The notes beneath the pieces are model-generated. The model was not told the DNA's origin. It searched no databases and saw only the letters and a program-made list of their open reading frames with translations. Both the position numbers and the translations under genes were made by a program. A stretch of DNA of 61,177 nt, the filler included, from Dugesia japonica (Eukaryota), in NCBI GenBank assembly GCA_001938525.1. It is 5 parts of 5 records of this genome, joined end to end, with 100 filler letters (N's around TTAATTAATTAA, not from the genome) between each part and the next. Parts side by side here need not be neighbours in the genome. Positions count along the whole stretch, not along the records: positions 14,981 to 26,358 come from MQRL01601678.1; 4 more parts are not named here. One strand, 5' to 3'. This document shows, one piece after another, positions 10,339 through 54,705 of this stretch. The first letter of the stretch is position 1, and the number at the start of each line of letters is the position of its first letter.

Positions 10339-11793
10339 TTAAAAGACTGTTGGCTGGAGCTCATTAGCATAAAACCTACCAAGTATTTGATTTCCTTCTT
10401 GATCAGAGATTCCATAAGTTAATACTCCATCCCATGGTTGTGATGTATTATTTTCTCTATAGATTTTATAAATAGTATAAATATCTCTAGTCCAATTTAT
10501 TGTGTAACCTTTTTCAAATTTATCTTTAAATCTAAATATTCTAACTCGTTGACCAATTTTTAATTTGTTTTTATTTTTCCAGTTAACTGGAGTAACTAGA
10601 TTCTTGTTTGTTAGATTCCATTTAATTGTTTTCTTTTCTAATGATGAATTATCGTTAACTGGACTGCTGGCCAGTTCACTGGCTTGCTGGGGAGTAATAT
10701 TAATTGCACTGTGAACTGTATTATTGTAATCATCGGCTATAGATTGTAACAAATCAATATTCCACTTTTGATTACCCTGTTTAGTAAATAATTTAAACAA
10801 TCTTCTTTTGAATGTTCTAATTACTCGCTCTACAAAAACTGCTTTACCTCTCATTTCTGTTTCTAATAATGTAGAATAAAAATTAATATCATTCTCGATA
10901 CAAAACTCTTGAAAAACTTTATTATAAAATTCTCTTCCATGATCAACCCATAGATTATTAGGAATACGATTACTCTTTTCAATTAGATTTTCAAATCCAT
11001 CTTTTACTTCTTGACCAGTCTTGTTATTTAATCCTTCAATAAATATAAATCTAGTATATAAATCAATTACTATCAAGACTGTAGTCAGTTCTCTTCTAGC
11101 TGGAAAATTAGGAGATCCAATAAACATTAAATCAGCTGACCATGTTTCATCTTTAAAGAATAATTTAACTTTAAGAAACTTTTTAGCTTTTCTAAAAGGT
11201 TTATGAAGTTCATTAGCTTCTGTAGAAGTTGACTGTAAACCAGCTACTAGTCCTGATCCTGTCGTATTCACTCCAGCTCCTAGCATCACTTTACCCTTCA
11301 TTGCTAATTTAACTATTCCTCTTTGAATCTTTTCTGCTAGAGTTGGATCTTCTATATTATTTAAATCATGAATCATGTTTACATCTGCAACATGTCTATC
11401 TCTTATGTCTTCACTATTGTAAGCAACATCATGTTTTAAAGCAGCTTCATCTACTCTATTTATTGGTTCTTCACCTGGTTTCGGAAATAGATTACCATCA
11501 GCATCCTGCTCCAATCGAATGTCCAATCTTGTTCCTGGTCCAGTGTAATTATGACCAAATAAATGCCTTTCACCTGGATACTTTTCAGTGGTAAAAGGTT
11601 TTAATAAAGTAGAAGTTACTTTGGAAGATTGTAAGTCACCTCCAGTTACAGTTCCAGATTGCTGGGCAGTGGATTGTTGGTTGTTACCTTTACCATTGCC
11701 ATTGTTCTTTGAACATATTTTTCTATGTCTTGCTCTATTAGACTTTGCTAAATATCTATTACAATTTATACACAATTCTTTTTCTACTACCAT
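10339..11793 (-). CDS. Fusion of C2HC zinc finger, parvovirus-type phospholipase A2 and retroviral-like (rve) integrase
   Basis: PLA2: NYTGPG, VDEAALKHDVAY, HVAD. Integrase: ELHKP, WSADL, WVDHGREF, VERVIRTFK, YNNTVHSAI, GRFYANELQ. Confidence 0.92.
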   Translation of the reverse strand: MVVEKELCINCNRYLAKSNRARHRKICSKNNGNGKGNNQQSTAQQSGTVTGGDLQSSKVTSTLLKPFTTEKYPGERHLFGHNYTGPGTRLDIRLEQDADGNLFPKPGEEPINRVDEAALKHDVAYNSEDIRDRHVADVNMIHDLNNIEDPTLAEKIQRGIVKLAMKGKVMLGAGVNTTGSGLVAGLQSTSTEANELHKPFRKAKKFLKVKLFFKDETWSADLMFIGSPNFPARRELTTVLIVIDLYTRFIFIEGLNNKTGQEVKDGFENLIEKSNRIPNNLWVDHGREFYNKVFQEFCIENDINFYSTLLETEMRGKAVFVERVIRTFKRRLFKLFTKQGNQKWNIDLLQSIADDYNNTVHSAINITPQQASELASSPVNDNSSLEKKTIKWNLTNKNLVTPVNWKNKNKLKIGQRVRIFRFKDKFEKGYTINWTRDIYTIYKIYRENNTSQPWDGVLTYGISDQEGNQILGRFYANELQPTVF

Positions 11794-11831
11794 TTATTAA
11801 TAACATTATTTGGTGTTGCTACTTAGCGTTA

Positions 11832-13151
11832 CTATTTTAACTGGCTAGTAACAATTGGTACAGTTGTTCTAAGTCCTGCTAGCTGACCAGTTAGACTTGG
11901 TAAATTAAAATTCTTTACATCTTGACCTTTAATATTCTCTACAAACATTACTTTACCATTTGATATCTTTAATTCAACATGCTTCTCTAAAAGTATTAAC
12001 CAATATAAATTACCAGTCATTTCACTATCTTTAGTTATGTGGCATGTTAAATCTACATTGTTAACAGTCAACTTTTCATCTTGTGCAGAACAATCAAAAC
12101 AAAAGATTGGATAGAAGCTTGTCCAATCTTTAATACTTAATTGAGGTTTAGTAGAAAATGAATTACACATGTCAATATACATTTGATATGGAAACATTAC
12201 ATTATTATTAACTACATCAAATTCAACTCGAGCATTTGGATAGTAGACATTATTTAATTGTAATTTTATAGTCTTTAGGTAATAGTTGTAAGTCTTGTCT
12301 GGTTTAACTATAGACTGTTTTAATGTAAATAAATTATTATTCAACTTGTATGAATTAGTATTACACTTGTAACCAATAATAACAAATCTAGGTCTATATG
12401 GTAAATTACCCATCTTTATTGAAAAACTAGTACCAGATGATATAGAAGTATTTCTTATTTCTCTTTCCAAGAATGAAGATTGAATTGGTTTATTAGTTGA
12501 TAGTCTTTCTAAATAATGTAATTCCATCTTTGGTGCTAAAGTCCATTCAGGTATATGTAATTCAAGACAGTCTATTTGTATTTCTACTTTATCATCTGTA
12601 CTTCCAAAGAAAATCTTTTCATTCATTATTTCTCTATTACAATCCAATTGAATAAAGGTATTAAATAATAGTCTATTGTAATTTGATAAAAAGCCAAATA
12701 GATTCTTTAGAGGATAATAACCTTCATACTTGGTTAAATATAATTCTTGTCTCTTCTTTGAACTATCTTTTATTGAATCAGGAATCCATCCATAAGCTTG
12801 ATGAGACTTTTCACTAGCCTTGTCAATTAATATTAAATTAATCATTTTAGAAGCTACATCAGGAAAGGTTATTGATTCAATATAAGTAGATCCTAATTTT
12901 AATCTCATTTGTGAAAACAAAGCTGGAAAGAAATCATTCTCTAATGTAGTAGTTGGTTTTTCATTTTTAAAACTAATTCTGAAATACATTTTGGCATTTC
13001 CAATATCTAAAGGATTAGTATTTTGTAGTGATTGGAAAGTTACATCACCATTCTTGTTCAAATTAACCATTGACCCAGCTGTTGGAGAAATTTTCAATAA
13101 ATCACTTTTAGTTTGCACATGAATAAAATTTACGTTAAAGTCCAAGTCCAT
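11832..13151 (-). CDS. Major capsid protein (double jelly-roll, hexon-like)
   Basis: 439 aa, beta-rich; ALFSQMRLKLG..IE, YYPLKNLFGF, RPRFVIIG, LNNVYYP, YPIFCFDCS; position in the Polinton gene set. Confidence 0.87.
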   Translation of the reverse strand: MDLDFNVNFIHVQTKSDLLKISPTAGSMVNLNKNGDVTFQSLQNTNPLDIGNAKMYFRISFKNEKPTTTLENDFFPALFSQMRLKLGSTYIESITFPDVASKMINLILIDKASEKSHQAYGWIPDSIKDSSKKRQELYLTKYEGYYPLKNLFGFLSNYNRLLFNTFIQLDCNREIMNEKIFFGSTDDKVEIQIDCLELHIPEWTLAPKMELHYLERLSTNKPIQSSFLEREIRNTSISSGTSFSIKMGNLPYRPRFVIIGYKCNTNSYKLNNNLFTLKQSIVKPDKTYNYYLKTIKLQLNNVYYPNARVEFDVVNNNVMFPYQMYIDMCNSFSTKPQLSIKDWTSFYPIFCFDCSAQDEKLTVNNVDLTCHITKDSEMTGNLYWLILLEKHVELKISNGKVMFVENIKGQDVKNFNLPSLTGQLAGLRTTVPIVTSQLK

Positions 13152-13515
13152 TTGGTATAAAAATTATTTGGTTCAGCCAGTTGGCTTACTGCTACTAGCG
13201 TTGTCAAGAGGCTTGTCACTATTAGAAATTGCACCAAGGTGCTTGAAAAATTTAATTGCTTTCTCTTTTATTTTTCTTCAGTTAAAGTATATTATAATTG
13301 TAATAATTATCGATATTATTATTATTATAATGCTATATCGATAAAACTTTAATTCTACTCTTAAATCAATTATCATATTTTGGTAATTGATTTCATTATC
13401 TTCTTTTTTTTTTTAAAAGTTTTTCCATCCCCTCACTTATTTCACACAATATACTTGAATTACTTATTATTTCTTCTGTAATCATTTTCTATAGAAATTA
13501 TTTAAGAGTATTGTT

Positions 13516-13578
13516 TAAAGATTACAGTTTAAAGATTATAGTTTAAAGATTATATTTTAAAGATTATAGTTTAAAGAT
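13516..13578. repeat. 14-bp tandem repeat (TTAAAGATTATAGT-like, about 4.5 copies)
   Basis: ttaaagattacagt ttaaagattatagt ttaaagattatatt ttaaagattatagt ttaaagat. Confidence 0.8.
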
Positions 13579-13936
13579 CATTGTTCTTAATCTTGTTAAA
13601 AAAGTCTTCATCCTTCTTCAAACTTTTTATTAAATACTTTTTATTTTCATCTTTATACTTTTTAATAATTTCTTTGTATTGAATAGTTTTATTTCTGAGT
13701 TGTAATTTATGTAACTCTTGTAATTTATTTATTTCATCATTTAAATCATAAGTTACTTTTTTTCCTGTTTTAACATTTTCATATCCTTTTTTATAAACTT
13801 TGTAACTTATGAATAATTTTCTAATGACGTCTTCTTTTTCTTTTTCACTTTCCAATTTATTTAATAATTTTTCTAATTCTTCATATACCTCTTTTGCAAA
13901 TTGTCTATCCTCTCGAATTAATTTTAAGTCATCCAT
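13571..13936 (-). CDS. Polinton accessory hypothetical protein (Lys/Glu-rich, helical)
   Basis: 121-aa ORF preceded by TAAGAAATG, like other genes of the element. Confidence 0.55.
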   Translation of the reverse strand: MDDLKLIREDRQFAKEVYEELEKLLNKLESEKEKEDVIRKLFISYKVYKKGYENVKTGKKVTYDLNDEINKLQELHKLQLRNKTIQYKEIIKKYKDENKKYLIKSLKKDEDFFNKIKNNDL

Positions 13937-13952
13937 TTCTTAAGGAAACTTT

Positions 13953-14153
13953 TTAATTAAATTCATTTTCATTTATATTTAAAGTACTTCCATGTCTAAT
14001 TGAATTTCTATTATTATAAACATCTTTTAAAAAATTACTATTTTCTATTCCGTTATTATATATTGTTTTTGGAACAGAATTTATTAATTCTTCTTCTTCT
14101 TCATTATTATTATTTACTATAGGAGAAGCTGCCCCTCCTTTAACATTTTCCAT
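13953..14153 (-). CDS. Small Polinton hypothetical protein (MENVKGGAASP...), likely true start at 14153
   Basis: ATG overlaps the end of the upstream ORF; the longer predicted N-terminus is a low-complexity overlap. Confidence 0.35.
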   Translation of the reverse strand: MENVKGGAASPIVNNNNEEEEELINSVPKTIYNNGIENSNFLKDVYNNRNSIRHGSTLNINENEFN

Positions 14154-14673
14154 TTTTTTTATTTTGATTTCTATTAGGTAAAACTTTTGTTTCTTCTTCT
14201 TCTTCTTCTTCTTCAAAATAATGTTCTTTCTTATTATTATTAATATGTTCTTGTAAAAATTTATAATTGCAAGCATTGAATTTGGGGAATTGAGCTTTAT
14301 CATTCATTGCAGAGATTAATTTTAATTTTATGATCCTACTCTCTTTTATTCTTTCTTCTTCTTTGTCTATTACTTTTTTAGGTTTAAATTCCATTAATGA
14401 TGTTTTATTTTTTCTATAATAACACCCATCTTTATTAGGTAAAAATAATGAAGTTACATTATCATATTCAAATCTATTATTTTCAGTCTTTTTCTTTGGT
14501 TTTAAAGGTTTTACTATATTTTTTTTTCTTAATATTTTATTAAGTTCACTAATATTTACCCTTATTTTTTTAGAAATTTGTGTATTAGTTAAATTATAAT
14601 CTGTTTTTTTTGTATTTAAATAATCTTCAAGAATAATTTGTTCTAGTTCATTTAACACATTATATGCTGCCAT
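14140..14673 (-). CDS. Polinton accessory basic protein, possible N-terminal HTH
   Basis: LTNTQISKKIRVNISELNKIL resembles a helix-turn-helix; first gene inside the right TIR. Confidence 0.5.
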   Translation of the reverse strand: MAAYNVLNELEQIILEDYLNTKKTDYNLTNTQISKKIRVNISELNKILRKKNIVKPLKPKKKTENNRFEYDNVTSLFLPNKDGCYYRKNKTSLMEFKPKKVIDKEEERIKESRIIKLKLISAMNDKAQFPKFNACNYKFLQEHINNNKKEHYFEEEEEEEETKVLPNRNQNKKNGKC

Positions 14674-14806
14674 TTTCTATAGGAAAAAATTAGCGTTTAG
14701 TAAAAAAAAAAATTCTTCCCTCTTCTCTCTTCTTTTTTTTCTCTTCTCTCTTCTTTTTTTTCAAAATGATCCAAATCGAGCCAAATCGAGCCAAATTGAT
14801 CCAAAC

Positions 14807-14880: not shown

Positions 14881-14980
14881 NNNNNNNNNNNNNNNNNNNN
14901 NNNNNNNNNNNNNNNNNNNNNNNNTTAATTAATTAANNNNNNNNNNNNNNNNNNNNNNNNNNNNNNNNNNNNNNNNNNNN
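14881..14980. other. Artificial scaffold spacer N44-TTAATTAATTAA-N44 (also 26359-26458, 37915-38014, 48928-49027)
   Basis: Four identical 100-nt spacers with a six-frame stop linker. Confidence 0.97.
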
Positions 14981-17152: not shown

Positions 17153-19010
17153 GATGTCTTTTGATGTTATTCGTTGATTTATAAATGTTCCATTAGAGGA
17201 AACTATTAATCTTGGTTGTGAATAATGTGAAAAAATCTGACTGAGCATGATTTTTTAAGTGTGTTTGCTTTTAATGAACTATTGAGTTTTGTTATATCTA
17301 ATATACATTTTTGTCTAATGATATATGGCACAAACAAGTTGATGCTATGAGTTCATCTGTTGCTCTTACTTTAGATTTTTTGTTTATTTCAAATATGGAA
17401 GATAAAATTGATTTGTTTACTGAAAATAAAACATTCAATTGAGTTCTGACCTTGTTTATAAATATGAATGTAATTTGTGTAATGCCACATACATTCGAGA
17501 GACTTTCAGTCATCTCTATACAAGAATTCAGGAGCATAGTCGAGTTTGTAGTGGAAATAATATTGCTGAACATAACATTAATTGGGAATCAGTTGTTAGA
17601 ATAAATAGTTTTTAAATTTGGTACAGAAACTTTTAAGATTATTGAGAGAGAATTATGTATGAATAAATTATTATTAGATCAATCAACACAAAAATTAATG
17701 TTCAAAAAGGCTTTCTAGGTCTTTATTGAATGTTTTTATTTCATTTGATTTATTGAAAAGATTGCATAATTGATTACATAATCATAACTTTTAAAAGGAT
17801 TTTTCATTGTATATTGTATCTTAGGATGATACATATTCTGTCTAAAAATGTTGTACTAAAATATTTATTGAAATAGCGTTTAAGAGTTTGTATTGTTATT
17901 AATAGTATTATTATTGTTCAGATCACAATGATTATTATAATTGGACAACGCTGAAAAGATTTTTATAAAATCTTTTCTTTAATAAATTACAACTTTTTAA
18001 ATAAATTAAATAAAATAAAAAGGGAAATATTATTACAATAAAATTTACTTTAAAACTATCTTACCAAAAATTTATAAAAAGTATACTAAAATTGTAGACA
18101 AATGAAATTTACTTTTTTTTACAATTCAANNNNNNNNNNNNNNNNNNNNNNNNNNNNNNNNNNNNNNGATTCATAGATTTTAAATATGTGGGAAATTTTT
18201 TTAATTTGATATATATTATATTATATTATTTCATTAAAATAAAGAAAAAGCTTCGATCAAAATAAAATGTATTTGTAAAGAAATTAAAATTTTCGACAAT
18301 AGTCTTCAGGAACATGATGACTTATTGATTGATTCAATGCAATAGATCTTTGTTACTCAATTCTTTAGATTTTATCGAAATTTTATTNNNNNNNNNNNNN
18401 NNNNNNNNNNNNNNNNNNNNNNNNNNNNNNNNNNNNNNNNNNNNNNNNNNNNNNNNNNNNNNNNNNNNNNNNNNNNCATTTTTCGACCGGAAAGAGTCTT
18501 TCAGCTCTTATTCTTTCACCCTTTATTATTCCAATTTTCTTTCTGATGGTAGTATTACTACTCCAAGGTAAAATATGTCACTGTAAAATGGTTTCATATA
18601 CAACTGGGTAAGTTATAATTCACCAGATTTCTTTTGCATTAAGGTGTCCAGAAAAGGAATCTGAAAGTCGATTGACTTCTCTAAAGTGAATTTAATGTTA
18701 TCATTAATACTATTGACTAGTTCTAAAATATTTTCTAATGAAGAATTAGCAACAAAATAAATATCGTCTATATATTTGAACCAAAGATATATCTTCTTCT
18801 CAGCTTTGAGAAAATTTTTATTTTCAATGAAGTTCATAAAAATTATCGTTAAAATAGGAGACAAATTGTTACCCATTGCAAGACCACTTTTTTGTTTAAA
18901 AAGCTGTTCACCAATAAAAATGTTGTCAGAGAATAGACATAAATTGATAAAATAAATTATGAACTTCATTGAAAATAAAATTATTCTCAAAGCTGAGAAG
19001 AAGATATATC
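17153..19010 (-). mobile_element. Penelope-like retroelement fragments (RT core at 18613-18990; probable downstream domain at about 17153-17580)
   Basis: FKQKSGLAMGNNLSP, KYIDDI, NIKFTLE..IPFLD are Penelope-type RT motifs. Confidence 0.8.
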
Positions 19011-19906: not shown

Positions 19907-20046
19907 CAAAAATGGTGATTTTAAAATAGCGATCTTAAAAATGGCGACCACAAAATAGGAATCTTCAAAATAGCGACTACTTCAAAATAGCGGCTACTTC
20001 ATAATGGGGAACACTTCATAATGGCGACTAATTCAAATGGCGAATT
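19907..20046 (+). repeat. Degenerate 14-17-nt tandem array with AAAATGGCG-like core, upstream of the retroelement polyprotein
   Basis: aaaatggtga, aaaatagcga, aaaatggcga, aaaatagcgg, ataatggcga, caaatggcga. Confidence 0.7.
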
Positions 20047-20665
20047 TAATGAAAAATTAGAGGATATAGTACCGGAAAAATTGCAAGCTGAACATTTAAA
20101 TAATATATCACAAAGATATGATGAGCAAGCATCAGCAGGATCAGATCAAGGACTTATAAGAAGTTTAATCAAATTGGTACATGCTGATCTATATGATTGT
20201 ATAATAACTCAGAGTAGACCACTAATGATATTTGAAGATATGAAACTCATATTAAAAGAAGTAAGCAAATTGATAATAGCACATCCAGAAAGTGATGATT
20301 ATAAAGTAATAAAAACAATGATGAAGGAAAGAATAAATAAAAACAAAGGAGTTACAGCTATTTTGTATCTAATACTCAAGAATAGAGAACAATTAGTTGA
20401 GAGACCTGATAAAAACATTGTGGTCGTAGAGCAAATAGTTAATCAATTTTTTTACAAAGGAATTAACGCGTGGATCACTCAAGAAAGAGGTTGGGAAACG
20501 TTATATCCAACAAGTAATTGTAAACAGAAAATTCAGCAAACAGAACAGGAAGATGAAATAAAGAAACTCATTAATAAAGAGACAAAAAAATCAAATCGAC
20601 CACTAATGGGTACAATAATAACAATTATAACAATGTGTTTGGAATTAGCAAAAGGAGCAAATGCG
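20021..20665 (+). CDS. Bcl-2-like domain followed by a hydrophobic anchor/signal peptide (N-terminus of polyprotein)
   Basis: BH2-like NAWITQERGWETL; BH1-position ERINKNKGVTAILYL; N106-W151-W158 spacing (45, 7) equals human BCL2 N143-W188-W195. Confidence 0.6.
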
Positions 20666-22440
20666 ATGGTAGCATATGATTGTAACACTCCAAAATGGGG
20701 AAAAAAGTAATCATTATTAGATGTAGAAAATTTCCCAGAGGCGCACCTGACTAAAATAAAAATATCAAATCCAATAATCATGCATTTATATCAAGAATCT
20801 GATTTTGTACATGCAGACGCATATGAATGTAGTATAAAATTTGAAGAAGAAGTTTCATATTGTTATACCACGCAAAGTATACCACTAATACCAGCTCGGT
20901 CCCCAGACATAGTGGTAATAGATGCGAGTGATTGTGAGAAAGCGTTTAAAACAAAAACGTTGAAAGTACATGGTAATGAATTACAAGTAAGAGTTTGTGC
21001 GAAAGTAAAGCAAAAAGTGGACATTGTAGGATGGTCAACCGCGAGTGGATATTGTAGAGGGGAAATAATAAAATATCGGGGCAAATGAAATCTGACATCT
21101 TAGTTCGAAGGCAATATCATGTTGAACTAAAGAAAATAAAAGTAACATTTGATGCTGCTCCGGGAAAAATGATGACACATCCATTTTGTAGCTTAAAGTA
21201 CACAAGTTGTGATACCGGAGAATCGATGATGGTGTATAAAGTAAATCCATTTGAATGTACACTTACGAAATTAAGGACAGTTGGAATGAGAGAAGTTAGT
21301 GGAACTTTACCAACGGATAAGCCACCTAACATATAAGATGCAAAAAGGAAAGCAACAGTGATTGGGGAAAAGACAACACCAACAATATATATATCAAATT
21401 CAACACAAGAAGCATTAAGACGTATTGAAAAAGGAGTAGATATCAAGTGTAGAGTAGAAGTGACAGTAACAAATTATAATGGGTTATATCTATCAACAAA
21501 AGAAATAAAAGATGCCAGACCAGGGGTTGATAAACTGGATGTAAAATAGCTACATATTTTAATAATAAAATTGACTTTATCTATCATGAAATTTTAAGAC
21601 AAGTAGATAGAATATATTAAGAAACAATGATGAAAAATTGCAAAAATAAGCGAAAATTGCTAAGAGCAAAAATGGCAATGGAAGTAACAAATCCGGATTT
21701 AGTAGCAGCACTCTTGTTTGAAGAAAGAGGAACATTTGGAAGAATAGTGGGAGAAACTTTAGTGAGTTTTAAATGTAAACCAGTAACAGTTACGCTTACA
21801 GATCATGAGAAATGTACTAATGAATTACCAGTAATTTATAAAGGAGAGAAAGTATTTTTGCTTCCAATAACAAGAATTCTATCAGATAAACATTATCAAC
21901 CAAAAGTGATTNAAAAATGTAGTAATATTCTTGATACTATGTACAAAATAACTGAAGAGGTATGGATAACAGTGTCGGACAGAAAGACAGCACCAACTCC
22001 ACTGATGATGGAAATGATAAAGCTCAGTAGAACAACAGAAATGGAAAGGATTGATAATATGGAAAATCGTGGTATTTATACAATTAACGATATNNNNNNN
22101 NNNNNNNNNNNNNNNNNNNNNNNNNNNNNNNNNNNNNNNNNNNNNNNNNNNNNNNNNNNNNNNNNNNNNNNNNNNNNNNNNNNNNNNNNNNNNNNNNNNN
22201 NNNNNNNNNNNNNNNNNNNNNNNNNNNNNNNNNNNNNNNNNNNNNNNNNNGTAGATAGATTTTTGGGGGGATTGCAATGGTTTGGCAATATATTCTCATG
22301 TATTTTATTTGGGTGGTATGTCTTAACATTTTTAAAAATTAGCGGGTCATCAAATAATTTCTCTAAGACAACTACATGCAGTTTTCGGTTACACATGGAA
22401 ACTAAAACCATGTTGCTGTCCATTTATTGCAAAACACATG
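20666..22440 (+). pseudogene. Chuvirus-like (class III/gB-related) envelope glycoprotein, with 3 stops and 3 frameshifts
   Basis: AYDC..SLLDV, LYQ..C..YC, GYCRG, TYFNNKIDFIY, GETL..KCKPV.V....CTNELPV.Y.G..VFL.P.TRIL, GIYT, TM WFGNIFSCILFGWYVL, LHAVFGYTWKL. Confidence 0.82.
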
Positions 22441-22669
22441 ATTGTGCAAAGCCATAGTGAAAATATAAAGAATCTAGAAAAACATCGAGGCATATATACA
22501 GTAAACACAGATGATGAGCAAGAGTTAAATAAATTAACTAATGATAGATCATCAGATACAGAATATAAGCCATATAAACAAGAAAACATTGAGTTAAAAC
22601 AAATAAAAATAGATGATTCAACACAATATAGATGTCAAAAAAATTACTCAATATCAGTCATAAATTCAG

Positions 22670-23010
22670 AAAATAATAGACCAAAAACAGACATCATAAT
22701 AAATGGAATTAGTATACCTTCGTTAATAGATACAGGAGCAGTATGCTCAATAATAAAAGAATCATGGTTAAATAAAGCCCAAAGACAGAAAATGAAAAAC
22801 TATAAACCAGATGGTATAAAGTCATTTACAGGTCATATAATAAAAACAAAAAGGATAATTGAGTGTACGGTCACAATTGGACAAGAAATTGTTACTTATT
22901 TAGAGTTATGGAAAAGGGAACACAGAATTGTATTTTAGGTATGAATTTTCTGGCAAGATTAAAAGGTTATGTCATTGATCTACAAGATAGCATATTTAAA
23001 AGTGGTAACA
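22670..23010 (+). pseudogene. Retropepsin aspartic protease
   Basis: SLIDTGAVCSII; ILGMNFL after a frameshift. Confidence 0.88.
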
Positions 23011-23603
23011 TCATTACCAGTGCAAGATAAAGGTAATGTGATATGTGCAACAGACTNNNNNNNNNNNNNNNNNNNNNNNNNNNNNNNNNNNNNNNNNNNN
23101 NNNNNNNNNNNNNNNNNNNNNNNNNNNNNNNNNNNNNNNNNNNNNNNNNNNNNNNNNNNNNNNNNNNNNNNNNNNNNNNNNNNNNNNNNNNNNNNNNNNN
23201 NNNNNNNNNNNNNNNNNNNNNNNNNNNNNNNNNNNNNNNNNNNNNNNNNNNNNNNNNNNNNNNNNNNNNNNNNNNNNNNNNNNNNNNNNNNNNNNNNNNN
23301 NNNNNNNNNAAATTGTAGTGGAGGAACAACAAAATAGAGTGAATTTACAGAGGCAGAATAAACAAGTTCCGACTATGAAATCAGGGAAAAAGGGGTGTCA
23401 ATTAAATAATCATGAATTATTTGAACTTATACTGAAGAAACAAAAGAAAAATGAAAAACTAACTGACAAAGAACTAATAAAACAAAAACAAATAAAGTAC
23501 TATGAGAAAGCAAAAATAACAAAAAAAAATCTTACAATAAATCAGCAACAACAACTACAGAAACTGCTAGACAAATATGAGGATGCATTCGCTAAACATC
23601 AAT

Positions 23604-23810
23604 TTGAAACAGTTTAGACCATTTATATATGGAACTGAGATAATTATCCGAACAGATCATAAACCATTAGAGGGTTTGTGGAAAAACAAGGATGCATCCA
23701 GTAGGATATTGAAATGGGCAATGAAAATCCAAGATATGAGCATACGTATAATATACAAGCCAGGTAAAGCAAATTAAAATGCTGATGCATTATCAAGAAT
23801 TCCAGAAATA
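23604..23810 (+). pseudogene. RNase H C-terminal remnant (RT and RNase H N-terminus absent)
   Basis: KQFRPFIYG..IRTDHKPL..RILKW..IYKPGKAN*NADALSR. Confidence 0.85.
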
Positions 23811-23959
23811 AATATATTAGAAATGATGTCAATTGTTATAACTGGAACAAATTTGAAAACGTTTCTAGAAGAACAAAATAAAGATAAAAAAATACAAGAC
23901 ATTAAAAAGATGATGATTCGAGAAAAGAATACTAAATATAAAATGTATAAGAATTTTCT

Positions 23960-25080
23960 TATGTACAATAACTGATGGTTGTACCAGATTCTTTAAAACA
24001 ATTGTTACTGCTACAATATCCTGATGGAGCGCTCGGAGGACACTTATCCAGTAGAAAAACCAAGACTTCTACAAAAATATTATTGNNNNNNNNNNNNNNN
24101 NNNNNNNNNNNNNNNNNNNNNNNNNNNNNNNNNNNNNNNNNNNNNNNNNNNNNNNNNNNNNNNNNNNNNNNNNNNNNNNNNNNNNNNNNNNNNNNNNNNN
24201 NNNNNNNNNNNNNNNNNNNNNNNNNNNNNNNNNNNNNNNNNNNNNNNNNNNNNNNNNNNNNNNNNNNNNNNNNNNNNNNNNNNNNNNNNNNNNNNNNNNN
24301 NNNNGGAAGCGTTTCCTGCCAAAGATGAAACAGCAGATACAGTAGCAAGGTTATTAGTTGAGAAGATAATTTACAAATATGGAGCGCCAAGGAAGCTGTT
24401 ATCAGATAGAGGAAAGAGTTTCCTCAACAAAGTAATTCAACGAGTAACAAATATATTTGATATTAAGAAAATAAATACAACGGCTTATCATCCACAAACT
24501 GATGGGTTAGTTGAAAGATTTAACAGCACATTATGTAATAGATTGTGAATAAACATAAAAATGNNNNNNNNNNNNNNNNNNNNNNNNNNNNNNNNNNNNN
24601 NNNNNNNNNNNNNNNNNNNNNNNNNNNNNNNNNNNNNNNNNNATCTTATGTTTCTCAGAAAAAATCATATGCCAATAGATATAACATTTGAACCAATTGT
24701 GTCACAATATATGGACAATCCAGATTACGTGTCAAAAATGCAAGAAAGATTACAAGAGGTATATAAACAGGCAAATCTAAAAGTAAAGTTCAAACAGGAA
24801 CAATACAAATATTATTATGATCGAAATGTCATTGAACATAGTTTTCAAGTGGGGGATAATGTGAGAATAAAGACACCAATTACACAGAAGGGATTAACAA
24901 ATAAACTAGCAAGGCCTTACAAAGGTCCATATGAGGTAGTAAAGACAACCCCTACAAATCTGCATGTGATAAAAAACAAAAAAGATGATCCCATAATTGT
25001 GGCAGTTAACCGATGCAAAACAGCAGAAGCAGAAATTGAACCTAAAAAACAACACAAATATAATCTTCGATCAGGATCAC
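23960..25080 (+). pseudogene. Gypsy-type integrase
   Basis: GGHL, YGAPRKLLSDRGKSF, TTAYHPQTDGLVERFN, FQVGD.V, KL...YKGPYEV. Confidence 0.9.
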
Positions 25081-25094
25081 AAAATACACTACCA

Positions 25095-25898
25095 CTTTTT
25101 ACACTAACTTTAGTGACATTGTTGACAGTAGGTGTAGCTCAATTAGAGAAGATAAAATGTTCTAGTTATATAAAAACGATAATTTATTCAGATAGAATCA
25201 TACTCAGGGCACCTGATAATATAACGATCGCTGCAACGATAAAAGATAGACCAATCGCATACGTTAAAGATATATCGAGTGAATACACCGGAAAAAAGAA
25301 ATATGTCTTCATACCAATACCAATGAAATTTAACAAGGGGATAGTTCAGATAGAGATAAAAGAACTAGAGGCCAACACAAAATATAGAATTTGGATACAT
25401 TATCGGATAAAAGGAATCAGATCATTAGAACAACATATGTTTACTACATTATCGGAGAAACGAATTATACCACAAATAAGATTAATGACTACTCCCACAA
25501 AACAGGAAAAGTTGAGTACAACCAAATCACAAATAGAAACAACTATTCATCATAGTACACTAGTATATANNNNNNNNNNNNNNNNNNNNNNNNNNNNNNN
25601 NNNNNNNNNNNNNNNNNNNNNNNNNNNNNNNNNNNNNNNNAATAATAACACGAAATTAGATTACCAACAAATACGACACAAAATTCTACAGATGTGGGTT
25701 ACAACAACAATAAAACCATTTAACATAAAAATATTACATCATCCTTTTTCAATACTGGGAATGGCTGCATTACTCTTCCTCCTGGCTTTCATAGTCACAT
25801 TAATCCAAATGCATAAGCGATATAGGTGGAAGAGGCAGCGTTATCGTCGTCGCAATGCTCCACAAATTTCGAACTATGCCCAATGGACATTGGTCTGA
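25095..25898 (+). CDS. Type I membrane protein module fused after integrase: signal peptide, FN3-like domain, Thr-rich stalk, TM, basic tail
   Basis: LFTLTLVTLLTVGVA; IEIKELEANTKYRIWI (FN3 L.P.T.Y motif); ILGMAALLFLLAFIVTLI followed by HKRYRWKR. Confidence 0.65.
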   Translation, partial: LFTLTLVTLLTVGVAQLEKIKCSSYIKTIIYSDRIILRAPDNITIAATIKDRPIAYVKDISSEYTGKKKYVFIPIPMKFNKGIVQIEIKELEANTKYRIWIHYRIKGIRSLEQHMFTTLSEKRIIPQIRLMTTPTKQEKLSTTKSQIETTIHHSTLVYXXXXXXXXXXXXXXXXXXXXXXXXNNNTKLDYQQIRHKILQMWVTTTIKPFNIKILHHPFSILGMAALLFLLAFIVTLIQMHKRYRWKRQRYRRRNAPQISNYAQWTLV

Positions 25899-26282
25899 AC
25901 ACCCTATGTTAAACCTTCAAAAAATATTAAAGTTCTATATTACTATTTATATATATTTCTATTTACATAATAAGCTACTAGTACTTGTAGCAGTACATAG
26001 GACTAGCCAGTCCTTAAAATCAATGTTTAATTATTCTATTATGTCAGAGAAAACATTTCAGCAAAAGATATCAGAAATAATCAAAATCAATCAACATCTA
26101 ACTCTATAAAACAAACAATTTAAGCATCACCAATCAGTTACATATTATACAATGCAATCACAACAACAAAAAATTGAATATGCATGTATGCAAATTGAAT
26201 GTGCATACTGAAAAATCAGTATAAATACTGAATAGTTTGATGGTAAAGCTAAACTTTTAAATTGAGAAAACCTCTCTCTTTT

Positions 26283-26358
26283 AAATTAAATTCACTTTAG
26301 AGAAGTCAATCGACTTTCAAATTCCTTTTCTGGACACCTTAATCCAAAAGAAACCTGG
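26283..26358 (+). mobile_element. Penelope-like RT fragment, second copy in opposite orientation
   Basis: IKFTLEKSIDFQIPFLDTL; reverse complement of about 18623-18695. Confidence 0.7.
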
Positions 26359-27696
26359 NNNNNNNNNNNNNNNNNNNNNNNNNNNNNNNNNNNNNNNNNN
26401 NNTTAATTAATTAANNNNNNNNNNNNNNNNNNNNNNNNNNNNNNNNNNNNNNNNNNNNTAGTTTAAGTAGCAAGTCGAATATTTGTGAAATAATGATTAA
26501 AATTCTAAACTCTGAGTTTATATTGAAATTTGGTACATTTTGATTTATAAATAATTGAAAATACCATTTAAATTTCTCACACAAAATTTTTGTAAACACA
26601 AACGCTTAGTCTCCATTGTGTGTAATTATCGTTTCAACACAGCTTACACAATTTCTTATCAAAGGTCTTTAAAAAAAATTTATTATGCAGGATTTTTATC
26701 TTGAAAAATATCACTTAAGCATATTTTGAAGAAGATAGAGAAGTATGTGAAACTAATTACTCATAAACGTTTGACAGAATGAAAATAATTCCATGCACTA
26801 TTTTATGTATCATGAACAAATTCCAATATTTTTTGTTTTAAAATTTTTATTCAGAAAATACAAAATTGGTCTATTGATTTTATCTATGTCTAGGTAAATC
26901 ATCACACACAAGTTAAAAACACATTAAAGGTTCATTCTTGGGAAGTATTAACCAAACCGCCGCATTAACCAATACTTGCTACTATAGGTTATCATTTTTT
27001 TCATTCGATAGTACTCANTATATGAACAGCATTTAAAACCGAAAGAAGTGGAAANTTTGGTTTCCGAATTATTTCCCTCAAAACAAGAAAACTTCTGTGG
27101 GAACAATATTAACTAATCGTCTGAAAGATTTAGGGAAATTTGTAGCAAGCGATTGGCATTAATTTAAATAAAATACTTTTGACGTTTCTCTTGAAATTAT
27201 AGTGTTTTGTTTGATAAAATCAACATTATTTGTCATTGCACTTATTAAAGAGGAGCTAGCACATATCCCAAGTTTAATTAAAAATATTCATACTTATGGA
27301 AAAAATTTAAATATAAAATTTATAAAAACTTTAAAAATAGTTAATTGATTTTCAATTAAATATTTAATAAATTTCGCACTACAATTTCAATAGAATGTTG
27401 CATCTTACTAAACAACACAATATCATTATTTCTCATATGCATTGAAATATGATTATATCAATTGATGTGTGTCTCAGATAATTCATATTAAAACTTAATC
27501 AATACAGCAATTAAAATATGCAAATTTTTTGTATGTTAAAAAAACACCATTACGTGACGAAATCATTTTTTCTAGAACTACGATGATTACCTAATTTATT
27601 TGATTAAAAGTCAACTTTACAATCCCAATATTCTAAATACAATTTAAATAATACGTATTTTTTATGAATTAAAATTCTAAAAAAAAATATCTCAGT

Positions 27697-37402: not shown

Positions 37403-38014
37403 TATATGTGGCATATGAACTTAAAAACTTAAACATTTTATATGTATAGAACAAAAAATGGGGTCCAGAAATAATTTTATTGAAATTATGTGGTAGATCC
37501 AGTTCGAAAAAAGAAGTAAAAAATAGCGTTTACAAGCTGAAAATTTTGTTTATATCTCTTAAGTATGGAAAAAATTCATCCAGAATAGCCGAAATGGTTA
37601 TAAGCGCCTGTACCTATTGACTAAAAGCTTTTCTCGACCAAAAATAGTTGTAGCTTTAAACAATATATATACCAAAAAAGCTGAATAAGTTTGAAATCAA
37701 ATTTCGGTTAGCACCTGGCACTAGCACTAAATAAATTTCGAATGAATTTTCATGTTTCAGAAAGGATGAGAACAGAATATACTCTGTTCTTCTTGGAGAG
37801 TTGTTTCAAATGCAAAAAAAGTGTAACCAAATAATTCGCAAAATATGAGATGAAATAACGCATTAAATATTTTTTAAATTTCAAAATAAATGCAAAAATA
37901 TATTTAAAAAATATNNNNNNNNNNNNNNNNNNNNNNNNNNNNNNNNNNNNNNNNNNNNTTAATTAATTAANNNNNNNNNNNNNNNNNNNNNNNNNNNNNN
38001 NNNNNNNNNNNNNN

Positions 38015-46948: not shown

Positions 46949-49029
46949 TTCAATAAAATAAAATTTTGAAAACTTTAAATNTTAATGATATTAGTTATTT
47001 AAACAAATACTAATTTAAAGATAAATTTAATTTTTAACCAAAATTGTAATTCCACCATATTTAAATTCATTTATTAAAATTTTGAATTTTAGGAAATTTT
47101 ACTAATATTATTCTTTATTTATTCTATTGTTTACATTAATTTATTCTGATAAATTTTAAAAAATGAGTTATTGATTTTATTTTCTTGGATAATGATTCAA
47201 TTACTTTTTAATGACTATAGTTAAAGTTAAAGGATTGAAAGCCAACAAGATTTTAAATTACCTTTCTTTTGTGAACATAATTTATTTTTTGACAAATTGC
47301 TAATATTTCTATAATATCTTTTTTAGAAATGAAATAATGATTATTGAGAAAATATATATTAGAAGCATACAGTAATTTTTCAACTATATTTAAAATCAAA
47401 ATAGTCTTAATCTTTTTTTCAAATTCATCATTTATTGTCTAAATTTTAATTAAACTAAAATGCAAAAAATATAGGCTATTTGGTTTTATCCTTTACTCTT
47501 AATGAAAAATGATTTAGGATTATTGTAATTGTGAAAATATGAAAATATTGTGTTAAAATATTATATTAAAATACTGCGATATCATATAAAATATTGTTCG
47601 TGTTAAATTCCCTTTTAAGTTGGGCACACATAATTCTTGCTTGGGCTTTTTTAATATTAAAGACTTTTACCGAATCGTTTCAAATTCTTTTAATAAACAT
47701 CTGCTTAATAATTTTCTCGTCGATNTGAGCTTTATCTACTGTCTGTTTTAATCCTCCAGCGAAGGTCCAATATTGTTCGTTTACCTGTTGTTTGCAGCTC
47801 ACCATTTTTATCAATTGTCACATTAAGAAATTTTTCTTTAAAGTTCTCTCGCTTCCTTCAATGATTTAATTTGTTGACAATTTCTTAATAAAACAAAAGT
47901 ATGATGTACTGGCTTCAACAGATTAACTGCTAAAATTTCTGCCACGTCTTCATAGTTCTAGTTGTACGCTTAAAACGAATTTCATGCGTCTCTAATCCTC
48001 TAATTCCTCATCATTTCCTCTAAATTTCTATTCATTAAAATTTTCCTTTACACGATTTGTTATATTTGCTCTTTTATCCTATGTTTGGAATTTTATCTTA
48101 ATAAAATAAAAGAAATAAATGAAGTTACTAATCGATAAATGAATATGACAAATCCTGAAGAAGATAAAATCGAAAATTTGTGGAAAAAACANNNNNNNNN
48201 NNNNNNNNNNNNNNNNNNNNNNNNNNNNNNNNNNNNNNNNNAAAATGATTTAGGATTATTGTAATTGTGAAAATATGAAAATATTGTGTTAAAATATTAT
48301 ATTAAAATACTGCGACATCATCTAAAATATTGTTCGTGTTAAATTCCCTTTTAAGTTGGGCACCCATAATTCTTGCTTGGGCTTTTATTGACTTTTAGAC
48401 TTTTACTGAATCGTTTCAAATTCTTTTAATAAACATCTGCTTAATAATTTTCTCGTCGATATGAGCTTTATCTACTGTCTGTTTTAATCCTCCAGCGAAG
48501 GTCCAATATTGTTCGTTTACCTGTTGTTTGCAGCTCACCATTTTTATCAATTGTCACATTAAGAAATTTTTCTTTAAAGTTCTCTCGCTTCCTTCAATGA
48601 TTTAATTTGTTGACAATTTCTTAATAAAACAAAAGTATGATGTACTGGCTTCAACAGATTAACTGCTAAAATTTCTGCCACGTCTTCATAGTTCTAGTTG
48701 TACGCTTAAAACGAATTTCATGCGTCTCTAATCCTCTAATTCCTCATCATTTCCTCTAAATTTCTATTCATTAAAATTTTCCTTTACACGATTTGTTATA
48801 TTTGCTCTTTTATCCTATGTTTGGAATTTTATCTTAATAAAATAAAAGAAATAAATGAAGTTACTAATCGATAAATGAATATGACAAATCCTGAAGAAGA
48901 TAAAATCGAAAATTTGTGGAAAAAACANNNNNNNNNNNNNNNNNNNNNNNNNNNNNNNNNNNNNNNNNNNNTTAATTAATTAANNNNNNNNNNNNNNNNN
49001 NNNNNNNNNNNNNNNNNNNNNNNNNNNAT

Positions 49030-49939: not shown

Positions 49940-52900
49940 TATGTAAACATTGTATTAATTGTAAAATGAAAGAAATAATTTTCTCGTTTTGAGGTATGAC
50001 AGGAAGCAAAAGTTAAACCAATGAAAATTTATTAAAATTATTTGTTTCTATTTTACCTTGTTTTATTAAATATATTTATAGTTATTAATTGTGAAATAAA
50101 TTGTGAATATGTCTTAAATGAATAGTTGTGAATTAGAAAATAAATTATCTAACATGGTTGTCGTGGTAAATACCGATTTAATTACAAATACGGGATTACT
50201 AAATGTGTTCTTTAAATGAGAAGATATCGAAAAATAATAACGCGCTGTGATCAAAGCGCAAAGAAGGGCAAAAGAAATTTTCTAATTTGCCTAAAAAACG
50301 CAAGAAATGTTAATCCCGAAACCAAGTTTCTTTGATGGTCTCAGTCAAGATGCCAAAGATTGGATGCACGCAACGAAAGATTTTGCGAAATTCAATCAAA
50401 TAGAACTTTTTTTCGTGTTAGATATGCTTCTAAGAAGTGATGCAAAACAGTTGTAGGAAGAATTTACCTGTTCAAATGATTCTGTTACTAATGAAAAGGT
50501 CATAAAATGTTTTATGAAAATGTTTTATAAATAAAAAAGCGATTTATGATAAAGTAAAGAAATTGTTTTCAATAAAACAGAGAACAGGCAAGAAGTACAG
50601 AAATTTTGAGATTCGAGTTTCAAAAAATGGTTACAGATGTGTTTCAAAAGAAATTAACAATAGAATAAATTGCAAGAGCATTTATTCTGCAAGGATTACA
50701 GAGTGAGAAACTACGTGAATCCATCAATGTCTGACGAAAGAAGAAGAAAATTTGCAACGAATTTAGAAAACTTGGTTCTGCATCGATAAGTTCGTGTCAT
50801 GAAACCAATATATAATCAACGTTCAGAAGAGAAGACACATTTTGAGCACCAAAGGAATTTAGGAGATATTAAATCTTCAGAAAATAGAAATCAATCTGAA
50901 AATTCAACTGCATATAAGAATCGAGAGAAACATTTTTCACAAGCGAGCAATAATGAGAATTTTTCTCATCAAGCCAATAGACCATAAAATGAAAATTATT
51001 GCAATGAAATGCTCGAATCAATGTGGGGATAAAGCTCCTCCACGTGATGAAATCTTACAACAGGGTGCATGCTTTTGTTGTGGTAATACGAGTCATAGAC
51101 GAAATGAATGTCGACTTAAGAATATATGCCTAATTTGTGGTAAAATTGTNATTATTTCAAAGATTGTTATTTGGTTACCAATGGCTATCTAAATGGAAGA
51201 ATATCATGTATGGAGAAGAGCAAAGTGTGAACGAGATGAATAATTTAGACGAAATCCAAGATATTAATGATAGCGAAATGGAAAAAACTCATTTGCTCAA
51301 TGCTTAACAGATGCTAAAAGTAGCATCCAAAAGTTAAAATATGAATTATCCACAGCACCGATATTGGCATTTTTTGATCCATCAAAAGAAATAATTCTAG
51401 ACACTGATGCAAGCTTTGGAGCTATTGGAGCTGTTTTAAGCCAAAACAATTACAGAGCCGATGAAAATTTCAAAGGTTTGATAGTTTAAAATTCTCACGA
51501 GAAAGGTGTGCCCTAAAAAGAATGTTTAGCTATTCATGAATTTGTTATTCATTTTAATCATTACTTTATTGGGAAAATGTTTAAATTAAGGAATGATCAT
51601 AAAGCTTTGACTTATATGAAGAAAACAAATAAACCAATTAATCCACAGTTTCAGACTTGGTTTGCTAATCTTTCTGGATTTAATTTTNATTTAGAATATC
51701 GGGAAAAAACGGATCACAGTCAAGAAAATATGAAACGCTGTGTAGTCAATGTTTAACTAATTACCATTATGGTAAAGGGAATAAATCTAAAGTTTGATTT
51801 ATAAACAGTTTAACCCTAAAAAGCACAACAGAGCCTACCAGTCTCTATTTGAAGTTAAATTGCTAATAGATTTATTAATATTTATCCATTTCCCCCAAAA
51901 TCTTTTTTATTTGTCTATTTTCATCATATAAGTATAATAATTGAAGCATTTGACAAAATTTAAATCGGTAACATATATTTAATTAAATTTCACTAGTAAA
52001 TAGCACAAACGCACAACAGTGCTCTATATGTTTAAGTGTGAAGTTCTGTTTAGATAATTACACGGTATACGAAGTGTAGGCTATTGCATTCAAATATATA
52101 AGTCTAAACAATAAGTGAGTGCATTGCAAGTAAAAATTAAAAAGTGTTTTGAATATAAGTTTGTTTGAATATCTGATAGGATTAATTATCGCAGCTCGCT
52201 TTATTTATAATTTTGGAAAATATTATATGCCTGGAGAAAATATTGTTGTAGATAAGCAGCTTATGCCTTGTCGCAGCTGATGTTCTTTTATTCAAAACAT
52301 TCCATCTAAGTCCGACAAATATGCAATACAAATTTAGTGGTTATGTGATTCCAAAACAGCCTATCCACTCGTCGGAATTCCATATACAGGAAAATTAGGC
52401 AACACCAGAGCGGTTGGACTTGGAAGAGAGGTCGTTGAAAAACTGTGCGCACCATATTTTGGAACCAATCGCAATGTAGCTATTGACAATTACTTTACAA
52501 GTAAAGAATTAGCACAAAATCTTTTGTCTAATGGTCGAACATTAGTAGGTACTCTGCGTAAAAAAATGCCTGTATTATATATGAATTTCAGCCTAACAAA
52601 AACCGAGAAGCACGTACAACTTTATTTGGATTTCAAAAAAATATTACTATTGCGTCGCATGTATCCAAGTCAGGTAAAGCAGTAATTCTTTTGTCAACAA
52701 TGTACCACGACGACAAAATGATCGAATAAAATGGTAAAGCTATGTAGGAAATTAATAATTATTATGACTTAACCAAAATCAATACATTTGATTAGCTTAT
52801 TCACGAATATATGGTAAAGAGAAAAACAAATCGTTAGCCATTAGCTTTTTTATGAATATGCTAGATGCCGCTAGAATAGCTGGATATGTGNNNNNNNNNN

Positions 52901-54705
52901 NNNNNNNNNNNNNNNNNNNNNAACAAAAATCCAACAGACAAAATTTATTCCTGCAAGCATTGGCCGAATCTCTAATTGAACCTCATGTAAAGAAGAGGCC
53001 AAATAATAAAAACCTACACCGATAGTCCAAAACTCTAATAAACAGCTATTTTGAAGCTTCAACTACTGAAAGTTCTTCTATTATAGCTTCAACTTCCAGT
53101 TCACATGAAAAACTCAGAGAAAAAAAACGGTGGCATTTGTGTCCATACGCAAAATCAAAAATGGAGACGCAGTGGTGCGACAATTCCCAGGAAAATGTAT
53201 GCAATCAACACTCTACAACAACAATAAATTGTTCGTCATGTTAAAAAAAATAAATATTAGTCTGTTAAACTATATGTATATGTAAGGGATTTTTTGTTAC
53301 TTGAAAGTCAATTTTTTTTATAAATAATTTTTGTTCCAAATTAATATAAATGAATTCCTTAATTATTTAAAAACTAATAATAAATTAATTGTGTTCAATT
53401 ACTATTAAAATGTGGTTTTTTCATAGCAATATTTCATAGAGACTCAGAGNNNNNNNNNNNNNCTAAAGTTAGTAAAATAGTTGTGATTTTTAGGGTTAAA
53501 TGAAAATGTATTTTATGACGAAAATATGGAAGAGTTACAAAACAAATGTGGAATACTGAGATCAATATTACGCTAGTTACACGGCTTGGATAGTGATGTA
53601 ACTACTGAAGTGAAGAAAAGCAAATATTTTACAAGTATAGATAAATTAAAATTATTTGGGAATATTGTGATTAAAGATGACCAAGAGAAGAAACTAATTG
53701 TTATTCCAGAAAATTACTTATCAAAATTAGTCAAATACATTGTCATTTGGGAAGCTAGAAGTTAGTTGAATTTATTCAAGAGGTACACTTCTGGCCTGAT
53801 ATGGGTAGAAACATTGAACACGAAATTCAAAAATGTGAAATATGTGCCAATAGAAAGGTTTACATTGGTCGAACAAAAGAATTATTGTTTACCTAGAGAG
53901 AAATTTTGACCACTAGAAAAACTTTTAATAGATGTGGCCTATTTTTTTGAGTATAAGTCTAATCAAAAGTAGTTGCTTGTTATTATCGATAGATTTATCA
54001 AACTAATTCGACTGATACTTCTTAGTAAAAAAGATGAAATAGCAATAACAGTTGCTATAAAGAACCAATAGATTTACCGATTTTGAAAACCAAAATCAAT
54101 CTTATTTAATCGAGGTGGAGTTTTTGAAAGTAGCAAAATAAATGAGTTGTGTGGAAGATTTGGAATTACACAAGAATTTACATCACTTTACCAAAATCAA
54201 GCCAACGGTTTAGCAGAGCGAGTAATTAGAACAGTCATAAATATTTAAGTCACTTAAATTAATAGTGATAAGAATAGATTTACTTAGGATAAATACATTC
54301 CAAGATTGAGTTTTCCATTAATGCAACATACCAAAGCGCTATAAAGAAATCTACATTTGAGGTTCTATATGGGCCAAAAGTGCTGTTACATCGATTGTCG
54401 AGAAATACACCTGTTAATCATGAACAAGTGGTTGATGAAACAAAAGTAGTACTGAAACGAGTTGCAGATGAATAAATAAAATACGAATCAGAAACAAGAG
54501 GTCACAGACAATTTGGAATTGGTGAAAATGTTCTTGTAAAAAAGGAACCTCCCAATATTAATAAAAGTAGAGACAGATATGAAGGCCCGTATACGATTAT
54601 TAAGTTTTTAAGTCCCCATCAAGTCTTACTGAATCTTCCAGATAAACCAAAGTCAAGACGAGTTGAATGGCTAAAACGAGTTTCAATTTATATGTAGAGG
54701 GAAGT
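49940..54705 (+). mobile_element. Decayed Ty3/gypsy LTR retrotransposon (gag, RNase H, integrase; PR-RT missing); 5' boundary approximate
   Basis: ..AACA-TGG PBS-like junction at 50154/50155; CFCCGNTSHRRNEC zinc knuckle; LDTDASFGAIGAVLSQ; FWPDM..CEIC; NGLAERVIRT; YEGPY; purine tract at about 54695. Confidence 0.85.
51814..53495 (+). mobile_element. piggyBac transposon nested in the gypsy element; internally deleted and decayed
   Basis: TTAA-CCCTAAAAAGCACAAC ... GTTGTGATTTTTAGGG-TTAA; IVVDKQL, IPSKSDKY, IDNYFTS, Cys-rich C-terminus. Confidence 0.92.

Follow-up and report, generated by a model that had tools for sequence, protein, structure and literature searches.

Does the retroelement in a stretch of planarian DNA carry an envelope gene in the place of gag, or is it the remnant of an element that once had both? 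The stretch analyzed here, referred to as the window, comprises 61,177 nucleotides (nt) of the Dugesia japonica assembly GCA_001938525.1, made up of five parts of five records joined by filler. The element lies on the + strand of the window, in the part taken from record MQRL01601678.1 and in A+T-rich surroundings, from about position 20040 to a stop codon at 25896-25898. An initial annotation had read it as a retroelement without Gag, in which an envelope glycoprotein (Env) occupies the Gag position of a single polyprotein. We consider it very probable that the element is a dead, likely 5′-truncated copy of a Burro-like Ty3/gypsy retrotransposon of the GAG-ENV-POL type that lacks its reverse transcriptase (RT). 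In its intact relatives, one reading frame codes for Gag, a Bcl-2-like domain, a gB-type Env, Pol and, at the C-terminus, a membrane protein predicted to carry a fibronectin type III (FN3)-like domain.

Domain order and decay of the window copy

Three-frame translation and Pfam searches with 13 uninterrupted segments of the element revealed, on the + strand, a Bcl-2-like domain, a signal, a gB/chuvirus-type Env, a transmembrane segment, protease, RNase H, integrase, a second signal, an FN3-like domain and a final transmembrane segment, which bears out the module order initially proposed. The gB-type (Monjiviricetes/chuvirus-like) Env ectodomain (20663-22091) is broken by stops and frame changes, is colinear with that of the relatives and matches Monjiviricetes_fusion (PF24664) at 20711-21085 (E=1.7e-5) and 21621-22091 (E=5e-26). 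Ahead of it, hydropathy predicts an internal signal (20600-20662) with a putative signal peptidase site before a YDC motif; a hydrophobic stretch upstream of YDC is also present in most relatives. A 157-N gap precedes the Env transmembrane segment (22251-22340; translation and hydropathy), followed by the cytoplasmic tail and a linker (22336-22680) that are in frame with the protease and match the tails of the relatives in tblastn searches. The aspartic protease (22681-22990, DTG at 22729) was recognized by Pfam in 22336-22935 (E=3e-5) and by comparison with relatives. Further downstream are a pre-RT linker (23312-23606; recognized by eye from motifs also present in relatives), the C-terminal half of RNase H (23607-23800; positions 60-104 of RT_RNaseH, E=1e-9) and an integrase (23972-25070) comprising the start of the zinc-binding region, the core (rve, E=9e-6) and a GPY-type C-terminal domain (E=3e-4), with two N gaps and one stop. 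Protease, RNase H and integrase in this order together with the GPY motif agree with the Pol order protease-RT-RNase H-integrase and the GPY/F-type integrase of Ty3/gypsy elements (Metaviridae); RT is present in the relatives and deleted in the window copy. The window copy carries one protease. Protease domains are multiplied in four relatives (P0152, P0009, P0003 and P0006), with up to seven Pfam stretches in P0152, some of them after the integrase.

The remnant is 5.9 kb long and contains at least five frame changes (near 21060-85, 21545-55, 22335, 22900 in the protease, and 23970), in-frame stops at 20708, 21334, 21618, 23775 and 24546, and five N gaps plus one single N. Hydropathy singled out hydrophobic segments at 20600-20650, 22290-22340, 25086-25145 and 25731-25817. 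One stop-free frame (22336-22935) holds both the Env tail (LHAVFG...) and the protease motif DTGA, and the Env transmembrane stretch (22251-22454) is read in a different frame; thus, a frame change near 22335 lies on the path from the transmembrane segment to the protease. The run without stops from Env into protease that had been described therefore exists from the tail onwards and does not include the transmembrane segment. Damage is also heavier than the few stops and single-base frameshifts noted initially, given the frame changes, the five stops and the gaps.

RT is absent. The protease DTG and the RNase H motif are 878 nt apart in the window, an N gap included, compared with 601-610 codons in seven of nine relatives (the motif was not found in the other two), and the pre-RT motif abuts the middle of RNase H near 23605 in called bases, a junction at which RT and the first half of RNase H are missing. 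At the 5′ edge, ATG 20021 lies inside an array of 15-17-nt tandem units (19908-20037, + strand; TRF); the array motif was matched 15 times against 5.0 expected, six of the 15 matches being inside this interval. This ATG is therefore probably not the true start of the element, contrary to the first proposal. The array is likely foreign to the element and appears to mark the truncation point. Together with the missing RT, this edge means that the copy has demonstrably lost parts. Upstream of the element we noted A+T-rich DNA, small inverted repeats and, by eye, Penelope-like fragments; other repeats overrun both ends of the copy. No pair of long terminal repeats (LTRs), primer binding site or target site duplication was found in the window, nor in two related loci (L001 and L002) that both come without their 5′ end.

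No CCHC motif lies between Env and protease, as stated in the initial annotation, or elsewhere within or upstream of the element; the sole CCHC of the window, at 51070, belongs to another gypsy element. Capsid and ubiquitin-like (Ubl) profiles built from the relatives gave no match in 816 six-frame tiles of the window (best E 0.29), the capsid profile being not very sensitive. With its stops, its frame changes and its RT gone, the window copy is inactive. It is likely shortened at the 5′ end, and loss of the capsid gene is likely restricted to this copy.

Relatives and the position of Gag

A phmmer search with an Env piece returned 390 proteins at E≤0.001, from which 14 long proteins were inspected together with the two loci (n=16). 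The best long relatives are single polyproteins in which Env is followed by protease and, where length allows, by RT, RNase H and integrase. Env, transmembrane segment, tail, protease, RT, RNase H and integrase share one frame in P0003, P0012, P0152, P0155, L001 and L002, in agreement with the proposed polyprotein that has Env upstream of Pol. In six of the 16 relatives (P0004, P0009, P0012, P0013, P0042 and L002), a CCHC motif is found upstream of Env in the same frame. Most informative is L002, an unbroken open reading frame (ORF) of 3703 amino acids (aa). It starts with a capsid-like region (Ty3_capsid, E=0.044; 27% identical to the P0004 Gag region along 156 aa, E=1e-13), two CCHC motifs (E=1e-13), a ubiquitin-like domain (E=0.018) and a helical domain that a profile search among 16 sequences matched to that of the window (E=4e-5). 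A signal, Env (PF24664, E=1e-83) and a transmembrane segment follow, and the frame continues through two proteases, RT, RNase H, integrase, a signal and FN3-like domains to a last transmembrane segment. In this frame, Gag thus precedes the Bcl-2-like domain, and the view that Env takes the Gag position is not supported. L002 runs Gag-Env-Pol, not gag-pol-env, the order that had been considered for intact relatives.

For an Env tree, 113 of 152 matches with at least 125 aligned residues were kept, and the best 45 were combined with the window (46 rows). The window Env was placed beside P0001 (support 100/97), with which it shares 52% identity, inside a clade of 24 rows (support 93/86) that contains five of the six Gag-bearing polyproteins. 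Word-seeded protein searches gave one match among 452 candidates for the Env piece, none among 1531 for the Bcl-2 piece and none among 7999 for the FN3 alignment. Locus scans found nothing in viral contigs or prokaryote genomes, plasmids yielded no match, and a scan of metagenomes with P0001 alone as query was likewise empty. One relative, P0012, is a retroelement polyprotein of 2627 aa that has been filed at NCBI as a 'hypothetical protein' of a Flavobacteriaceae metagenome-assembled genome; it is likely animal DNA in a bacterial bin.

The helical domain upstream of Env (20240-20530) is likely Bcl-2-like as judged from sequence profiles, and any activity is putative. It keeps a BH2-like motif, and its BH1 is degenerate. 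Pfam Bcl-2 was matched at 20288-20494 with E=0.015 and 0.049 in two runs, and P0005 matches at E=0.00096; these matches are consistent with one another, weak, and all under the curated cut-off. The domain is common to the window, L001, L002, P0001, P0005 and P0006. When family profiles were compared with the PDB, the best 60 sequences listed were exclusively Bcl-xL/Bcl-2 (E 0.14-1.7 and 0.17-0.49), mainly by virtue of the BH2 motif. PDB searches with single sequences of the helical domain produced only weak, unrelated matches, and the ESM Atlas returned no usable match for the region.

Three other explanations have to be considered. In a truly Gag-less lineage, the window copy, P0001 and perhaps P0006 would start at the Bcl-2-like domain and obtain their capsid in trans from Gag-bearing relatives. 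Such a lineage would account for the absence of capsid, CCHC or Ubl of the element's family from the window, for the methionine of P0006 located 49 residues ahead of its Bcl-2-like match and for a window frame that extends only about 100 codons upstream. However, the window ATG belongs to a tandem array, and the remaining proteins that seem to be Gag-less start partway into longer frames: P0155, P0005, P0003, P0007, P0152 and L001 begin inside those of longer relatives (E 2e-61 to 0.003), the L001 frame at a contig edge, and P0017 starts within Env. Moreover, a single frame of L002 contains Gag together with the helical domain known from the window, and PMC13524379, in the portion available, retained only elements with predicted GAG, ENV and POL, the flatworm element Smed_errantivirus_3 among them. 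A Gag-less enveloped retroelement would, if true, represent a replicon of a new kind; the locus is better explained by loss from a single dead copy, and we regard such a lineage as highly improbable. A gag ORF that lies separately upstream of a Bcl2-Env-Pol frame, is expressed by frameshift, splice or its own promoter and has been lost here is very unlikely as well. Gene calls that start between Gag and Env in P0003, P0005, P0006, P0152 and P0155 would fit this arrangement, as would the accessory domains of the planarian element Burro, which shift between ORF1 and separate ORFs in the account available from PMC6431247. Yet Gag, where present, is in frame with Env (L002, P0004, P0009, P0012, P0013 and P0042), and the short gene calls are equally explained by decay or assembly error.

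The least probable explanation is a chimera or mis-scaffold that unites an env fragment with an unrelated pol fragment. It draws on the five N gaps in the element, whose junctions are known from the assembly alone. Against it, called bases connect tail and protease in a single frame, the size of the Env gap fits the relatives (245 nt vs about 80 codons), and Env agrees with the core and the C-terminus of the integrase in pointing to the same relatives, all with the same order. Whether ranked by the window Env or by the window integrase, the same six relatives come out ahead of P0037 and P0042; this speaks against a chimera, a scenario foreseen in the initial annotation. We did not accept the second gypsy element at 50.2-54.7 kb as a source of the missing Gag; it belongs to a different family, its RNase H being 28-34% identical to those of the relatives, and has its own RNase H and integrase. 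Loss of Gag from this copy, mentioned initially as an alternative, is the best reading in view of the Gag-bearing L002 and the likely truncated 5′ end.

Several points weigh against a decayed GAG-ENV-POL copy with the proposed modules. In P0001 and P0006, the nearest relatives by Env, the sequence opens at the Bcl-2-like domain or a short way ahead of it with no visible Gag, so that no member of the window's own branch demonstrates Gag; the frame of P0037 is without Gag and has an unmatched N-terminus. All evidence from this genome comes from one copy in the assembly, and no LTR was found. The Bcl-2 scores below the Pfam cut-off and the degenerate BH1 in the window are joined by an unusable AlphaFold model (pLDDT 37), which leaves the fold unconfirmed. 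The resemblance between domains I-II of the Smed_errantivirus_3 Env, as available in PMC13524379, and window positions 20760-21490, which in itself speaks for such a copy, is a by-eye likeness with many motifs in common (YQESDF, FKTK, VGWS, VRRQY, KMMTH, SCDTGES and TPTIY). Finally, it is the domain order of the window and of the unbroken relatives that was observed; processing and function are deduced from general knowledge of membrane polyproteins.

The post-integrase cassette and a proposed polyprotein topology

Behind the integrase, the window copy contains a predicted second internal signal (25086-25145; hydropathy), an FN3-like beta-sandwich domain (25146-25469) and a terminal region (25470-25898) composed of a Ser/Thr-rich stalk, a transmembrane segment (25731-25817), a basic cytoplasmic tail and the stop. 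All seven relatives with sequence in this region have at least two hydrophobic segments after the integrase; in relatives, the predicted signal has the same position. The initial annotation was right about two internal signal/transmembrane modules. An FN3-type motif was matched in five of these seven. A profile of six FN3-like stretches searched against the PDB matched 12 sequences, all 12 of them receptors or adhesion proteins with FN3 domains (best E=0.009). A structure model of the window domain had a pLDDT of 53, and its top Foldseek match was a Dscam FNIII domain (E=0.0019, TM-score 0.56); the ESM Atlas gave an FN3 lead of 0.85, weak on its own scale. None of the six stretches matched Pfam fn3. 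As the domain boundaries had been picked from the motif, the profile, model and Atlas tests are not fully independent. Taken together, sequence and model predict that the post-integrase membrane protein is FN3-like and conserved in relatives. In L001, an extra signal/FN3-like/transmembrane cassette in open frame (L001:4740-5340) lies upstream of RT, with the second protease on one side and the third on the other, indicating that the cassette is portable.

Based on this order, the following scheme can be proposed for the intact family. Gag with its Ubl and Bcl-2-like modules would be synthesized in the cytosol, and the first internal signal would direct Env into the lumen of the endoplasmic reticulum, where signal peptidase would cut. 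The signal stub left on the Gag/Bcl-2-like precursor could serve as a membrane anchor in the style of a Bcl-2 tail anchor. The Env transmembrane segment would bring the chain back to the cytosol for protease, RT, RNase H and integrase, and the second signal together with the last transmembrane segment would give rise to a second type I membrane protein whose FN3 domain faces the lumen. In total, four segments, alternately signal and stop-transfer, would thereby set the topology cytosol, lumen, cytosol, lumen. The element's protease would free Gag, RT and integrase, the stubs holding Gag/Bcl-2-like protein and integrase at the membrane until they are cut. Gag, Env and Pol would be produced at 1:1:1 and be membrane-bound from the start, and we propose that core assembly and budding consequently take place at Env-rich membrane. 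Env would act as fusogen, the FN3 protein likely in attachment or cell contact, and the Bcl-2-like domain would likely damp host cell death or immune signalling, keeping the producing cell alive. The window copy would yield none of these products.

Retrotransposon envelopes are usually viewed as a single protein that both binds and fuses. If attachment were left to a separate FN3 protein, this would parallel the division of labour in herpesviruses and paramyxoviruses. It is conceivable, though on balance doubtful, that the family represents a two-glycoprotein enveloped virus, in which a portable cassette supplies a second, FN3-type surface protein that is cut from the end of Pol and serves separately in attachment or cell contact, while Gag, the Bcl-2-like module and integrase are held at the budding membrane by the signal stubs. 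If true, the separate attachment protein would provide a testable handle on cell-to-cell movement of very abundant planarian elements. The window copy is a poor specimen for this purpose, and intact L002-like elements are better suited to study the second surface protein.

Neighbouring and known elements

Penelope-like RT/GIY-YIG fragments, assigned by eye and including a repeat pair, flank the element at 17154-17700 (+), 18480-18700 (-) and 26250-26358 (+), the last of which may truncate its 3′ end. A short, broken frame after the stop (26041-26210, +) looks coiled-coil-like by eye and is possibly the start of an accessory ORF; Pfam gave no match for its first 22 residues. After the polyprotein, both L001 (10617-12107) and L002 (12085-13473) have an accessory ORF with an RNase T/DEDD exonuclease domain as well as small coiled-coil-looking ORFs. 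Residues 110-300 of P0037, upstream of Env, have by eye the look of a DEDD-type nuclease, not of Gag, with no Pfam match. DEDDy ORF3s have been described in rotifer LTR elements, according to the available part of PMC5408684.

Elsewhere in the window, a Polinton/Maverick-like element (476-14800, -) encodes PolB, a cysteine protease, a packaging ATPase, an integrase with a PLA2-like domain and a double-jelly-roll capsid (Pfam) in several ORFs end to end, some of them split by single stops. By eye, an ordinary gypsy remnant (50200-54700, +) comprises Gag with the CCHC at 51070, RNase H and integrase with no visible RT, and a piggyBac-like transposase fragment splits it at about 52050-53300. Paired 44-N runs with a 12-base spacer at 14881-14980, 26359-26458, 37915-38014 and 48928-49027 resemble scaffold joins; adjacency across them is therefore not assured.

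Sacco et al. in 2022 reportedly described nematode non-canonical endogenous retroviruses with a continuous gag-env-pro-pol frame. They resemble the window element in having an RNA-virus Env ahead of pol in a metavirus. The nematode Env entries in the available supplement of PMC13524379 look unlike the window Env by eye. Anakin, a BEL/Pao element (PMC7642597, as far as available), shares the glycoprotein family PF24664 and differs in its Pol, which is of BEL/Pao type, whereas that of the window is gypsy-type. Troyka was rejected as a match since it is a Gag-Pol element without envelope in the available portion of PMC12440569.

The single-frame Bcl-2/Env/Pol layout is already known and has been in print since 2018-2019, so that the description of the window element as an undescribed layout does not stand; both the Gag-BCL2-Env-protease order of Burro (PMC6431247) and GAG-ENV-POL elements (PMC13524379) are documented in the available texts. 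What we did not find in print is the second, FN3-like membrane protein after the integrase. No published description of this cassette was found in the available texts, a literature search returned one unrelated paper, and figures, Grohme 2018 and Sacco 2022 might already show it. The main text and seven supplements of PMC13524379, as available, mention neither a Bcl-2 domain nor fibronectin, the supplements being without FN3, and the Burro section of PMC6431247, to the extent available, names no post-integrase signal/FN3/transmembrane cassette.

Chary and Hayashi described gB-type GAG-ENV-POL elements in nematodes, bryozoans and flatworms (PMC13524379, available part). The flatworm errantiviruses of HSV/gB type entered there share with the window copy a gB-type Env upstream of Pol; unlike it, they are intact and Gag-bearing. 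A flatworm host is also probable from the nearest named relatives and the low G+C content of the window. The closest described system is the planarian Burro/GYPSM1 of Arkhipova and Yushenova, for which the available text of PMC6431247 gives one ORF of 4873 aa with Gag with two or three CCHC motifs, MATH, Ubl, BCL2-like domain, Env, protease, a dUTPase-like domain, RT, RNase H and integrase. Its Env is related to mononegavirus fusion proteins, and the authors regard it as the first env found in frame between gag and pol. Strict Burro traits (more than 30 kb, long LTRs, an ORF near 4900 aa, MATH/BIR/ankyrin cargo) were not found here, and the element was hence filed as Burro-like. In contrast to Burro, the window copy is far more compact, lacks Gag, Ubl and RT, has one protease and shows no LTR and no MATH, BIR or ankyrin domain. 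Compared by description, the two are alike in a single-ORF layout with a mononegavirus-like fusion glycoprotein, in the subsequent order of protease, RNase H and integrase and, as far as the weak profile matches of the window go, in a BCL2-like domain ahead of the glycoprotein, and L002 additionally shares with Burro the Gag, the two CCHC motifs and the Ubl domain.

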